DNA of 24,060 bases from a virus: IMG/VR virus record IMGVR_UViG_3300033074_001684, positions 1 to 24,060 of that record; one strand, 5' to 3'. The notes under the pieces are model-generated. The model ran no database searches. It worked only from the letters and a program-made list of their open reading frames with translations, and had not been told where the DNA came from. This document shows positions 18,812 through 23,046 of this stretch, one piece after another. Position 1 is the first letter of the stretch, and every line of letters begins with the position of its first letter. The translations under genes and the position numbers were made by a program.

Positions 18812-18903
18812 TGGCGGAAGATGAGAGATTTGAACTCCCGCACGCCTTACAGCGTGACCTCCGACTTCCAATCGGGTGCAATACCGGACTCTGCCAATCT
18901 TCC
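18812..18903 (-). tRNA. tRNA-Ser(GGA), class II
   Basis: Reverse complement GGAAGAT TG GCA..GG..TGC A CCCGA TTGGAAG TCGGA, a long variable arm, then GGGAG TTCAAAT CTCTC ATCTTCC G CCA. Confidence 0.8.
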
Positions 18904-19080
18904 ATGTAACTTTTTAGGGACAACAATCATCATGCCATTCAAAAACGTCTTCAATCGAAACGTACAATGCAACGTGTTTCCTTCAAACCATTGTAACAGC
19001 AACCAACGGCCATCGCCAAGTGTAGAATGAACAGTCTTTTTCCGCCCATCTATGTCAATAACTACGTCTCCAATTTTCAT
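18847..19080 (-). CDS. hypothetical 77-aa protein whose 3' 57 nt overlap tRNA-Ser(GGA)
   Basis: ATG overlaps the stop of the methyltransferase gene as ATGA. The ORF continues into the tRNA gene before reaching a stop. Confidence 0.4.
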   Translation of the reverse strand: MKIGDVVIDIDGRKKTVHSTLGDGRWLLLQWFEGNTLHCTFRLKTFLNGMMIVVPKKLHGRLAESGIAPDWKSEVTL

Positions 19081-19865
19081 GTATACGACTTCTGAATCTC
19101 TTCAAACATTGCCTTTCCGTTTGGTCCAAACATAGGAACTGCAAGCCCCATATAGCTAGCATAATTCGCAAACGTGTTCATTGCCCGTTTCCAATTTTTC
19201 GGATTGTAAATTGGGCACTCCAGCTTTTGCCACATGAAGTATCCAATCGTCCGACATACATCATCCCACGAAGGTGCGCCAGGAACGGGAACAGTGTCTA
19301 CTTCAAACATGAAAATCGGACCCGCTTCTTTGAACGTTTCCTGCGCACCATTCACCATAAAGATTTCCATACCTTCAATGTCTGCCTTGATGAACTGTGG
19401 GCGCAATCCAAAACTGTCCAATGTGCGCATTTCAACTTCAACTTCGCCATCGGTTCCAAGACTCATCTGTGTGCTTCCTGGACTACACAAAGCATCATTC
19501 GGGGTGAATGTAATCATTCGATTTTCGTGGCCCAACGCATACGGCAAAACTTCAACGTTGGTGATGCCGTTCAACTCCAGATTCTTTTCCAGGATGCCAC
19601 GGATTTCCGGCTGCGGCTCGAATGCATAAACCTTTTTGACTATCTTAGAAATCGGGATGGTCATGTCACCGATGTAGGCACCAGCCTCTACCACTTCGAT
19701 CCCATCCGGGTAAAGCGATTCCAAGATCTTGAACGTATTTCGCATCACGTCCATTTCACTCTCGCTCCATTCTCCTAACTCACGAAGAGAACGAGACACC
19801 CACGGGTCATCGTCAATCGTATGCATCTGCCCGTACCGGGTCTGAAAAATCCTTGTTGTAAACAT
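19077..19865 (-). CDS. SAM-dependent methyltransferase, FkbM family
   Basis: 262 aa. The VVEAGAYIGDMT glycine-rich SAM motif and overall FkbM-like layout are present. Confidence 0.7.
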   Translation of the reverse strand: MFTTRIFQTRYGQMHTIDDDPWVSRSLRELGEWSESEMDVMRNTFKILESLYPDGIEVVEAGAYIGDMTIPISKIVKKVYAFEPQPEIRGILEKNLELNGITNVEVLPYALGHENRMITFTPNDALCSPGSTQMSLGTDGEVEVEMRTLDSFGLRPQFIKADIEGMEIFMVNGAQETFKEAGPIFMFEVDTVPVPGAPSWDDVCRTIGYFMWQKLECPIYNPKNWKRAMNTFANYASYMGLAVPMFGPNGKAMFEEIQKSYT

Positions 19866-19877
19866 AATTTCAAATTT

Positions 19878-19967
19878 TGGCGGAAGGTGAGGGATTTGAA
19901 CCCCCGCATCCTTTCGGATGGCCTCAATTTAGCAAACTGGCACAATACCAAGCTCTGTCAACCTTCC
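19878..19967 (-). tRNA. tRNA-Ser(GCU), class II
   Basis: Reverse complement GGAAGGT TG ACA..GG..TGT G CCAGT TTGCTAA ATTGA, a long variable arm, then GGGGG TTCAAAT CCCTC ACCTTCC G CCA. Confidence 0.75.
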
Positions 19968-19974
19968 GTTTCCT

Positions 19975-20187
19975 TTACACATCCGTCCGCTTGCGATGGC
20001 CCAAGAAGTCACGCTCATGATCTTGTATGTAGTCTTCGCTCTGGCGATGCGATCCAACCTCAACCACTTTCCAGCCGTCTTCATCACGAATACGCAGATA
20101 CTTATCCTGATTCGCAAACTGCTCTGGAATCCAAGCTACTTGTCTTTCCGTGTTCCTACAGAGCACGCATTGTCTGTAATACGTCAT
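19975..20187 (-). CDS. hypothetical 70-aa protein
   Basis: GGAGAA 6 nt upstream of the ATG. The stop lies 7 nt before the tRNA-Ser(GCU) 5' end. Confidence 0.55.
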   Translation of the reverse strand: MTYYRQCVLCRNTERQVAWIPEQFANQDKYLRIRDEDGWKVVEVGSHRQSEDYIQDHERDFLGHRKRTDV

Positions 20188-20624
20188 GGCTGATTCTCCA
20201 AATCTTCTTCACTGAACCTGAGAATAGAATCTTCAGAAATCTTCGCACGCAGGATGCTGTTAAGAACTCGAACACTTGCTGCGCTCATCGGCTCAGATGG
20301 ATATTCATAATCTTCACCATCAGGAAGAGTTTCAACTTCACTTCCCGCTCCTGACAAAACTTCTGGCTGCGAAAACGATTCTTCCCATTGCTCTTTGGAG
20401 CATGTCGTTCCTGGTCCACCACCAGATCGAAGTTTATCCCAGGCTTCAACCTCTTCCATGCGCTTACGAATCCAACGCATGAAGAGAATGGCTTTATCCT
20501 CTGCTTTGAAGGTCCCAGTTCCGGTGTCATTGATCGGCACAGGAAACTGAAATCCATCTTCGGTTTCGTACCAAAGCTCTTTATCCCGGTAGTACAAAAA
20601 CCGAACTACCTTGTCCTTTACCAT
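20184..20624 (-). CDS. hypothetical 146-aa acidic protein
   Basis: ORF whose stop overlaps the next ATG as ATGA. Confidence 0.5.
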   Translation of the reverse strand: MVKDKVVRFLYYRDKELWYETEDGFQFPVPINDTGTGTFKAEDKAILFMRWIRKRMEEVEAWDKLRSGGGPGTTCSKEQWEESFSQPEVLSGAGSEVETLPDGEDYEYPSEPMSAASVRVLNSILRAKISEDSILRFSEEDLENQP

Positions 20625-21727: not shown

Positions 21728-21972
21728 ATATCTTTTTGTCCACTGTCTTGATACCCAAAACAGTGAGCTTCCCATTCTCCAGTTTCTTCGTTGTATCTCA
21801 TCCCGCCAGCTTCATTACATCCATAAAACACACATTCTTGTGGAATGTATCCTTCATGTGTTTCATCAATGTATTCTTGGCGCATCACCATTCCCAAATG
21901 ATGAGATTCCCACGAATGGCCGCACATACAAATTCCTGTACAACCTTCTCCACTGTATTTCGCTTTATACAT
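21718..21972 (-). CDS. Cys/His-rich 84-aa protein (CTGICMCGHSWESHH)
   Basis: ATG lies 7 nt after the CCA of tRNA-Leu(CAA). The TAG stop lies at positions 8-10 of the downstream tRNA. Confidence 0.5.
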   Translation of the reverse strand: MYKAKYSGEGCTGICMCGHSWESHHLGMVMRQEYIDETHEGYIPQECVFYGCNEAGGMRYNEETGEWEAHCFGYQDSGQKDMAP

Positions 21973-21979
21973 AAAACTT

Positions 21980-22067
21980 TGGTAGCCGGGGAGAGACTTG
22001 AACTCTCACGCCCCGAAGGGCACCAGATTTTGAGTCTGGCGTGTCTGCCAATTCCATCCACCCGGCC
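21980..22067 (-). tRNA. tRNA-Leu(CAA), class II
   Basis: Reverse complement GGCCGGG TG ..GG.. CCAGA CTCAAAA TCTGG, a long variable arm, then GAGAG TTCAAGT CTCTC CCCGGCT A CCA. Discriminator A. Confidence 0.85.
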
Positions 22068-22073
22068 AAAACT

Positions 22074-22271
22074 TTATTCCCCCTCGTTCCACGGAATATG
22101 GTCACGTGGAAACGTAACTTTCTTTGGATTTACAGCCCAAAGCCGTCTTTGAAACTTCTTTGAAAATAGGATGTCTTCAAACCGTACCTTCTTCTGATTT
22201 TCATCCGGCAACGCTCCACACATCGTACAGCGTCTCGATTCAAAATCGGTTTGGCATTCCCTACACTTCAT
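22074..22271 (-). CDS. zinc-ribbon 65-aa protein (CRECQ...CTMCG)
   Basis: GAGG 6 nt upstream of ATG 22271. The stop lies 6 nt before the tRNA-Leu(CAA) 5' end. Confidence 0.5.
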   Translation of the reverse strand: MKCRECQTDFESRRCTMCGALPDENQKKVRFEDILFSKKFQRRLWAVNPKKVTFPRDHIPWNEGE

Positions 22272-22443
22272 CTTCATCCTCGATTGCCATCACAATAGTT
22301 TCCAGTCGCTCTCTCATCTTCGAGCCTTCTGCAAACTCCAAGCATGAAAACTGTTCGTGCCCACAACCAACAAAGGTGAAGCTAACATCAGAAACATTAC
22401 CTATCGGATCTCTATCAACTGTGATAGTGCGTATTTTCATCAT
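22261..22443 (-). CDS. hypothetical 60-aa protein
   Basis: ATGA-coupled to the upstream gene. Confidence 0.45.
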   Translation of the reverse strand: MMKIRTITVDRDPIGNVSDVSFTFVGCGHEQFSCLEFAEGSKMRERLETIVMAIEDEDEV

Positions 22444-22673
22444 GGCAAGTTCGTCTCAATATCCGCCCAACACCCAGAGCAACGAGCATACAGATCACCA
22501 TATCTGTGCATCATTTCTCTCTTGCAGTCGCAACAGTACCAACGAAATTCACAAGCATTCACATCGCTGCCGTCAAAACAAGTGCATTCACCAGTGGATG
22601 GCGGATGAAACGCTGCTTTTGCTCGTTTCTTTTGTTTTCGTGATATAAACGCTGGTTGCTCGTTAATTCTCAT
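22440..22673 (-). CDS. Cys-rich 77-aa protein (CTCFDG..CEFRWYCCDCK..CSGC)
   Basis: ATG 22673 lies 6 nt after the CCA of the chimeric tRNA-like element. The upstream part of the track ORF is tRNA sequence. Confidence 0.5.
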   Translation of the reverse strand: MRINEQPAFISRKQKKRAKAAFHPPSTGECTCFDGSDVNACEFRWYCCDCKREMMHRYGDLYARCSGCWADIETNLP

Positions 22674-23046
22674 AAAACTTGGTAGCCCCGGAGGGACTTG
22701 AACCCCCGCTACCCTCATCAGGTAGGCCACCGTTTTCGAGACGGGCACATTGCCGCTCTGTCAATCCTCTACACTGAAAAATCCTAACTCCGCACCAGCG
22801 ACCGCTAGAGTCATTGCAACTGACATCACGAAGACGCCATCTAAGTGTGCATGAACATGTTGTATAAGCCACATCCAAATGACAATGTAAATCAAACTTG
22901 CCTTCCCAATAACCGTTATGCACAAAGAAGGAAATCAACTCTTCATTCGGCGTTCCTCTTGGGCTACAGAACAAATCAACTTTTCCATTCGTTCCCAATG
23001 CAAAGAACGGTGCCGTCCACTCTTGTGACACAGATGTAAACGTCAT
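22663..23046 (-). CDS. hypothetical 127-aa Cys-containing protein whose last ~108 nt run through the chimeric tRNA-like element
   Basis: ATG 23046 overlaps the stop of the KOW-Cys paralog B as ATGA. The ORF does not stop until after the tRNA-like sequence. Confidence 0.4.
   Translation of the reverse strand: MTFTSVSQEWTAPFFALGTNGKVDLFCSPRGTPNEELISFFVHNGYWEGKFDLHCHLDVAYTTCSCTLRWRLRDVSCNDSSGRWCGVRIFQCRGLTERQCARLENGGLPDEGSGGSSPSGATKFYEN
22680..22770 (-). pseudogene. chimeric tRNA-like element: 5' two-thirds match tRNA-Ser(CGA) and the 3' acceptor strand matches the type-I tRNAs; the acceptor stem cannot pair
   Basis: The first ~24 nt are identical to the 18595 tRNA-Ser. The anticodon arm CCGT-CTCGAAA-ACGG carries a compensatory A-T to T-A swap relative to CCGA/TCGG. 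The T-arm is GGGGG TTCAAGT CCCTC. The 3' end CGGGGCTACCA pairs only 2/7 with the 5' AGAGGAT. Confidence 0.6.

Follow-up and report, generated by a model that had tools for sequence, protein, structure and literature searches.

The 24,060-nucleotide (nt) stretch of viral DNA analyzed here, hereafter the window, covers positions 1 to 24,060 of the IMG/VR record IMGVR_UViG_3300033074_001684 and holds a minus-strand array of leucine and serine tRNA genes of a very large phage, in which the 3′-ends of small open reading frames (ORFs) run repeatedly into the tRNA gene lying downstream. An original prediction had listed four such overlaps, and all four are present on the minus strand at the positions collected in Table 1, according to ARAGORN, the ORF list and the sequence itself. 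They are not equivalent. Judged from its comparison among diverged relatives, the longest overlap, 57 nt between the ORF called ORF77 and tRNA-Ser(GGA), is a true, inherited and conserved dual-coding segment with both products under selection; the other three arose in other ways. Tolerated compaction, together with recombination within a mosaic array of tRNAs, is the probable source of the whole arrangement, one of the overlaps having become frozen.

Nine minus-strand tRNA genes were called in the window by ARAGORN, with support from the Rfam model RF00005 (gathering score, 29 bits), and the seven that fall within 18505–23713 are all for Leu or Ser. The three complete tRNAs that are entered by ORFs, tRNA-Ser(CGA), tRNA-Ser(GGA) and tRNA-Leu(UAA), were all called by ARAGORN and exceed the gathering score with a cloverleaf. 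tRNA-Leu(UAA) was missed by the whole-window RF00005 scan; the idea that it is degenerate was dropped after the gene was searched alone (Table 1). The distance from an upstream ORF to the 5′-end of a tRNA ranges from −57 to +7 nt and that from a CCA end to the next ORF from 4 to 18 nt; tight junctions without overlap, with spacers of 4, 6 and 7 nt at three tRNAs, coexist with the overlaps, and the extreme compaction proposed in the original prediction is borne out. Among GenBank phages, the vault-like protein encoded just downstream of the array has relatives only in the uncultured huge phages LR756500, LR756501 and LR756503 (462–735 kb; 37–38% identity); it also has a 74% identical counterpart in L004, a 119-kb IMG/VR contig, and the related locus L020 sits on a contig of 399,930 nt, which together argue that the window derives from a very large phage. 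No tRNAs were found near the vault-like gene in LR756501 and LR756500, the two of these genomes examined, and a megablast search of the array against GenBank phages gave no match. One further locus, L001, is 100% identical to the window and therefore carries no evolutionary information.

The final 19 codons of ORF77 (18847–18903), for 18 residues plus the stop, fall inside tRNA-Ser(GGA); a codon begins exactly at position 1 of this tRNA, and the terminating TAA is located in the loop of its variable arm. A word-indexed homology search found no homologue of ORF77, and an exhaustive phmmer search found P0009, P0011 and P0012 (75–79 amino acids, 47–57% identity), whose C-termini all read VPKELHGRLAESGIAPAWKAEVxL, which corresponds to the translated 5′-half of the tRNA. 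The DNA encoding these homologues (L018, L019, L020 and L021) contains in each case an ARAGORN-called tRNA-Ser(GGA) overlapped by exactly 57 nt, and in all three further lineages the length of the overlap, its frame and the variable-loop TAA are identical and the junction is free of indels. The original prediction had named clean spacers beside the same genes in related phages as the observation that would speak against a design feature; for ORF77, all three homologous lineages found keep the overlap instead. It is nevertheless not clade-wide, as L004 has no ORF77, and a different ORF there ends 4 nt before tRNA-Ser(GGA), whose variable loop also contains the TAA, used in this contig by no ORF.

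Both products of the segment bear marks of selection. The tRNA is under structural selection as far as its sequence changes indicate: compensatory changes are seen in 17 of 29 base pairs among five lineages, for example from A31-U39 to C31-G39, a change that shows in the protein as Asp-to-Ala and Ser-to-Ala replacements. In the body of ORF77 (codons 1–58), differences peak at third codon positions, with nonsynonymous differences (pN) of 0.35–0.45 against synonymous differences (pS) of 0.62–0.85, and in four lineages the frame stays open over 75–79 codons despite several indels in the body. The ORF starts in all four lineages by an ATGA overlap with the stop of the preceding gene. The AlphaFold2 confidence score (pLDDT, predicted local distance difference test) is 82–87 over about the first 40 residues and 39–54 from residue 51, including the tRNA-encoded tail; the best Foldseek matches in PDB are Tudor, KOW and SH3-like domains, without significance (E ≥ 0.14), and Pfam and PHROG gave no match. 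On the strength of this model, the body, which is under purifying selection, is predicted to be a small β-barrel and the 18 tRNA-encoded residues to be a disordered tail that tracks the evolution of the tRNA itself. The peptide GRLAESGIAPDWKSEVTL would serve as a mass-spectrometry marker of the full-length tail. ORF77 also shares its reading frame with the Zn-ribbon ORF downstream, only the variable-loop TAA standing between them (18805–18849, minus strand); read-through of this stop would fuse the two across the 3′-half of the tRNA, an arrangement that is probably a coincidence.

The two overlaps of 10 nt have a different history. In the Zn-ribbon ORF and in ORF84, the last two codons and the stop lie inside tRNA-Ser(CGA) and tRNA-Leu(UAA), respectively, and comparison of relatives indicates that both are lineage-specific, with a stop borrowed from tRNA positions 8–10. 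Homologues of ORF84 (P0002–P0005) are 55–66% identical to it, and a tRNA overlap occurs in none of the loci examined that encode them (L008–L014): in L008 and L010 they lie away from tRNAs with another gene directly next, and in L012–L014 they are part of another tRNA array, with 160 nt separating them from the tRNA-Met that follows. Their C-termini end approximately in KD or KEKP, to which ORF84 adds Met-Ala-Pro-stop, the Ala-Pro-stop being tRNA sequence. No related loci of ORF84 were found in IMG/VR. Homologues of the Zn-ribbon ORF occur in L004 (8994..9191), L018, L020 (7020..7241) and L021, and begin at Met22 of the window ORF. The one in L020 has its own TAG, 240 nt before tRNA-Ser(CGA), and the one in L004 its own stop, beyond which come an HNH gene and a tRNA in inverted orientation. 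Neither the Zn-ribbon ORF with tRNA-Ser(CGA) nor ORF84 with tRNA-Leu(UAA) is therefore a conserved dual-coding pair.

The recurrence of this geometry is accounted for by the tRNAs themselves. Among 220 tRNAs in the fetched phage loci, a set that includes the window and its own relatives, positions 8–10 are TAG, TGA or TAA in 105 (48%), and because of this stop triplet the 10-nt geometry reappears with unrelated ORFs: in L004, ORF 5085..5234 ends at positions 8–10 of tRNA-Leu(UAA); in L020, ORF 7259..7492, which was not called by the gene caller, ends at those of tRNA-Ser(CGA); and in L024, an unrelated phage contig, an ORF ends at those of tRNA-Ser(GCU). In two relatives the overlap is 1 nt, the last base of the stop being position 1 of the tRNA. 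An ATG-started upstream ORF of at least 40 codons, counted as a raw ORF, runs into the 5′-end in 30 of the 220 tRNAs (14%), 10 nt being the commonest class (9 of 30), and the three to four such overlaps among nine tRNAs in the window represent only a modest enrichment over this background. Most of the other frames of tRNAs are poor in stops, and long read-ins follow from this. A search of IMG/VR with a degenerate tRNA-Ser pattern matched only tRNA-Ser(GCU) genes of unrelated phages, which served as background.

The fourth case, ORF127, crosses a tRNA-like element completely and ends just past it. Its first 52 residues match P0007 (142 amino acids, 90% identity) and P0008 (137 amino acids, 70% identity), and no frame of the window encodes the remaining 85–90 residues of these proteins. 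The orphan segment that follows codon 52 (22776–22890) has no relative in any fetched locus. Aligned with the tRNAs of the array, the element (22680–22770) is Ser(CGA)-like over about its 5′ two-thirds, up to the T-loop sequence GGGGGTTCAA, and Leu-like over the 3′ third; its acceptor strands, AGAGGAT on the 5′-side and CGGGGCT on the 3′-side, are unable to pair, so that the element is a recombinant pseudo-tRNA. ARAGORN did not call it even at a relaxed threshold. The read-through and the chimeric nature claimed in the original prediction both held good, and the element has neither the score (Table 1) nor the paired acceptor expected of a functional tRNA. ORF127 is best read from these alignments as a gene remnant whose 3′-part has been replaced and which is open by chance through a stop-poor pseudo-tRNA.

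With respect to the clean ends looked for in relatives, three of the four genes thus differ from ORF77: homologues of ORF84 in L008–L012 never overlap a tRNA, those of the Zn-ribbon ORF in L004 and L020 end in their own stops, and P0007 and P0008 (137–142 amino acids) share 52 codons with ORF127 and have unrelated C-terminal halves. The contrast drawn in the original prediction between a design feature and annotation noise therefore survives in one half: the ORFs are real and have homologues elsewhere, and the four do not form a single class. That they are mere chance frames beside tRNAs is very unlikely. Such an explanation could draw on the fact that raw ORFs of at least 40 codons enter 14% of the phage tRNAs examined, on the scarcity of stops in most tRNA frames and on the lack of any homologue for ORF127 past codon 52, but it is largely refuted by the homologues that ORF77, ORF84, the Zn-ribbon ORF and codons 1–52 of ORF127 have in other contigs. 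Moreover, pN is below pS in ORF77, the indels of its body preserve the frame in all four lineages, and ORF127, like ORF77, starts by an ATGA overlap on the preceding gene. A non-standard genetic code, in which a reassigned stop would place the true ends of the ORFs elsewhere, can hardly be credited and was rejected on stop-codon usage. Some huge phages reportedly recode stop codons, but in the window TAA, TAG and TGA all end ORFs at tight junctions before tRNAs or gene starts, the vault-like protein aligns end to end with its relatives under code 11 (839, 840 and 841 amino acids), and ARAGORN found no suppressor tRNA.

The reading preferred here, compaction with recombination, would work as follows. 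The small genes occupy the gaps between tRNAs nearly without spacers, and a deletion or gene replacement that strips a gene of its own stop would let the ribosome read into the tRNA. In one frame it would meet a stop immediately, since positions 8–10 (U8, purine, purine) are very often TAG or TGA, giving the two 10-nt overlaps; in another it would read further, which would produce the 57-nt overlap up to the variable-loop TAA as well as the passage of ORF127 through the entire pseudo-tRNA. The overlap of 57 nt would have arisen once in an ancestor and then been kept. No convincing minus-strand intrinsic terminator was found inside the array, whose spacers leave no room for separate promoters, so that ORFs and tRNAs are probably co-transcribed. 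RNase P cleaves precursors at the 5′-end of the tRNA. Overlapped ORFs would accordingly be translated to full length from the unprocessed precursor, and a cut at tRNA position 1 would remove the stop and end the useful life of the mRNA.

The same geometry can be read as regulatory design, in which the overlap couples mutually exclusive fates of one transcript so that ORF77 output and tRNA-Ser(GGA) maturation limit each other. A ribosome on ORF77 would keep the 5′-half of the tRNA unfolded, and a folded tRNA would allow RNase P to cut off the final 19 codons, stop included, so that a non-stop mRNA would remain; the 10-nt cases would act alike on a smaller scale. This is an unlikely explanation of the array as a whole, and a selected coupling of translation with tRNA processing is plausible for ORF77 only, where it too must be called improbable. 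In its favor, four lineages retain the 57-nt overlap with unchanged frame, length and stop, conservation is strong up to tRNA position 1 with an indel-free junction, ORF and tRNA are both under selection, and the geometry would make RNase P cleavage and full-length translation exclusive on each molecule. Against it, L004 manages without the overlap and has the variable-loop TAA with no ORF to use it, the 10-nt overlaps are not kept for the same genes, and the tail, for which disorder is predicted, varies in step with the tRNA. Nor can the neighboring RF-1-domain protein be counted as a dedicated rescue factor for non-stop mRNA, a role for which it was considered and then dropped: the proteins of the window and of L020 (10985–11362) both have GGG in place of the catalytic GGQ, by alignment with an Escherichia coli ArfB sequence. 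More doubtful still is the specific proposal that ORF77-tRNA-Ser(GGA) is a bifunctional RNA segment in which competition between translation and RNase P sets the ratio of protein to tRNA or its timing. If true, a bacterial virus would here employ a regulatory equivalent of tRNA punctuation, and selection would act on the 18-residue tail as part of the protein.

Several points weigh against compaction and recombination as a sufficient account. First, ORF77 is most highly conserved in the six codons just 5′ of the tRNA, which encode VPKELH and vary chiefly by synonymous third-position substitutions. Second, the last codons before the tRNA, AAA, GAG and TTA, are one base away from an earlier stop, and such mutations have not been fixed. 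These two observations keep the regulatory reading alive, and neutral accident alone does not easily account for the survival of a 57-nt overlap down to about 50% protein identity. Third, a conserved tail aids the search for homologues, so that tail-less homologues of ORF77 may have been missed; the only check of this kind, a scan of IMG/VR with the ORF77 alignment using N-terminal and tail-derived patterns, confirmed none. Fourth, the background rate of 14% counts raw ORFs, some of which are surely spurious. Finally, each event may have been either a deletion in the window or an insertion in the relatives.

Recurrent overlap between coding sequences (CDSs) and tRNAs in a phage tRNA array is not new. 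The record of phage T5 (AY543070) contains four overlaps between a CDS 3′-end and a tRNA 5′-end on the same strand, of 6–24 nt, two of them with HNH endonuclease genes: T5.057 with tRNA-Met (6 nt), hegD with a pseudo tRNA-Gln (23 nt), hegC with tRNA-Ser(GGA) (14 nt) and T5.069 with tRNA-Asn (24 nt). In both phages small ORFs are interspersed in the array, that of T5 also holding HNH endonuclease genes, and three of the window cases are overlaps of the T5 type, that is, a same-strand CDS 3′-end with its stop within the 5′-part of a complete tRNA in a cluster. The window differs in having an overlap of up to 57 nt and in coming from an unrelated group of huge phages; conservation at about 50% protein identity applies to one of its gene-tRNA pairs, the T5 overlaps having been compared by annotation alone. 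In the literature library searched, no paper on conserved long CDS-tRNA dual coding in phages was found, only work on attP-tRNA coincidence, mitochondria and homing endonucleases.

In animal mitochondria, tRNAs flank coding sequences in polycistronic transcripts, their excision sets the mRNA ends, and CDSs can abut or overlap tRNAs; mitochondrial mRNAs often have incomplete stops (T or TA) that are completed by polyadenylation. The array resembles this punctuation in its extreme compaction, with coding sequence set against tRNAs. All four window ORFs, in contrast, have a complete TAA, TAG or TGA, three inside a tRNA and one past the pseudo-tRNA, and 5′-processing of the tRNA would remove a stop where mitochondrial processing leads to the creation of one. 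The attP sites of phages are likewise sequences coinciding with tRNAs, but they are 3′ tRNA fragments used for integration beside an integrase gene, whereas in the window upstream coding sequence extends into the 5′-ends of full-length tRNAs, and the array showed no integrase gene. A further parallel is offered by the T4 homing endonuclease SegB, which recognizes a T-arm motif of tRNAs and drives exchange of tRNA regions (PMC2330249). The mosaic cluster, the presence or absence of ORFs among relatives and the HNH genes in the arrays of L004 and L020 resemble such an exchange, and the chimera has its breakpoint within the conserved T-loop motif that forms the core of the site recognized by SegB (PMC2330249). 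Unlike the T4 SegB and T5 F-Tfl systems, the window's own array contains no endonuclease gene, and the link between endonuclease activity and the overlaps is putative.

Comparison of the arrays indicates a recombination-prone mosaic. In the slot between tRNA-Leu(CAA) and tRNA-Leu(UAA), the window has one small ORF, L004 another and L020/L021 a third, and HNH genes lie inside the arrays of L004 and L020. In L020 (4098–4670), the homologue of window ORF 19975..20187 is frameshifted and its last 15 codons are repeated immediately before tRNA-Ser(GCU), which may thus travel with the 3′-end of its upstream gene. The duplicated module of Table 1 is a paralogue of 21323–21727; both copies consist of a tRNA-Leu with a short variable arm followed by a KOW protein of about 95 amino acids, with anticodons UAA and CAA. 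The three Ser tRNAs of the window are closer to each other than to the L004 tRNAs with the same anticodons, as are the first tRNA-Leu(CAA) and tRNA-Leu(UAG), which suggests gene conversion or duplication with anticodon shifts within lineages. Other HNH-like ORFs begin right after tRNAs in L004 and L020, and at 9201–9822 of L004 an HNH-type ORF lies between the Zn-ribbon gene and tRNA-Ser(CGA), with the inverted tRNA overlapping the 3′-end of the ORF in antisense by 22 nt.

Pfam identified an FkbM-type methyltransferase, two KOW-domain paralogues and the RF-1-domain protein among the genes in and around the array. The methyltransferase is 68–76% identical in L004, L019, L020 and L021. A search of IMG/VR with its alignment gave only the contig of L004 and a relative of 33% identity, and a metagenome scan gave one relative, also of 33%; no tRNAs were found near either of these two distant relatives. 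A weak match to TRM5/TYW2 (E = 0.002, below the cut-off) leaves room for the enzyme to be a tRNA-modifying one. Another tRNA-like element follows tRNA-Leu(UAG) at a distance of 7 nt; it is 92 nt long, has a long variable arm and lacks CCA. ARAGORN detected it, as "Asn att", only when the threshold was relaxed, and the homologous elements of L020 and L021 are called as tRNA-Asn(gtt) and tRNA-Asn(att). By eye, a motif A(A)GTTTT was seen directly 5′ of many tRNAs and also between a CCA end and the next ATG (CCA-AGTTTT-ATG). It resembles the RNase E consensus RN|WUU and might indicate cleavage sites from which nearly leaderless mRNAs result.

Table 1. Features of the tRNA array and its surroundings in the window
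Feature	Coordinates	Strand	Remarks
RF-1-domain protein	15117..15491	−	Stand-alone, 124 amino acids; Pfam 38.6 bits (cut-off 35 bits)
Vault-like protein	15726–18245	−	839 amino acids; major-vault-protein shoulder and repeat domains
tRNA-Ser(CGA)	18505..18595	−	ARAGORN; RF00005 47.5 bits
Zn-ribbon small ORF	18586..18807	−	73 amino acids from ATG at 18807; TGA at tRNA-Ser(CGA) positions 8–10; 10-nt overlap
tRNA-Ser(GGA)	18812..18903	−	ARAGORN; RF00005 46.4 bits
ORF77	18847..19080	−	77 amino acids; predicted small β-barrel protein; start overlaps methyltransferase stop (ATGA)
FkbM-family methyltransferase	19077..19865	−	Pfam PF05050, 1.5e-13; syntenic anchor just upstream of ORF77
tRNA-Ser(GCU)	19878..19967	−	Upstream ORF 19975..20187 ends 7 nt short, no overlap
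tRNA-Leu(UAA)	21647..21727	−	ARAGORN; RF00005 43.9 bits in focused search
ORF84	21718..21972	−	Conserved Cys/His-rich small protein, 84 amino acids; TAG at tRNA-Leu(UAA) positions 8–10; 10-nt overlap
tRNA-Leu(CAA)	21980..22067	−	Upstream ORF 22074..22277 ends 6 nt short
ORF127	22663..23046	−	Codons 1–52 (23046..22891) homologous, then about 115 nt of orphan sequence, then pseudo-tRNA
Chimeric pseudo-tRNA	22680..22770	−	RF00005 24 bits (below 29), model positions 8–63 only
Duplicated module	23043..23411	−	tRNA-Leu(CAA) 23335–23411 and KOW-domain ORF 23043–23327
tRNA-Leu(CAA), second copy	23335..23411	−	Part of duplicated module
tRNA-like element	23529–23620	−	
tRNA-Leu(UAG)	23628..23713	−	Upstream ORF 23718..23888 ends 4 nt short
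A(A)GTTTT sites	23714–23719, 22068–22073, 21973–21979, 22674–22679		Also in tRNA flanks of L004, L020 and L021

Collisions between gene callers and tRNA finders in phage tRNA arrays are explained by the built-in stop triplets: with a ready stop in about half of the tRNAs examined, losing its own costs an upstream gene almost nothing. Automatic trimming of such collisions is unwise, as at least one overlap of 57 nt has been kept across diverged huge phages with protein and tRNA under selection. The array further presents tRNA genes as portable points of recombination, through slot-wise gene replacement and a chimera with its breakpoint in the T-loop, and ORF77 with tRNA-Ser(GGA) provides a concrete case in which a bacterial-type polycistronic transcript may be the site of mutual interference between translation and tRNA processing.

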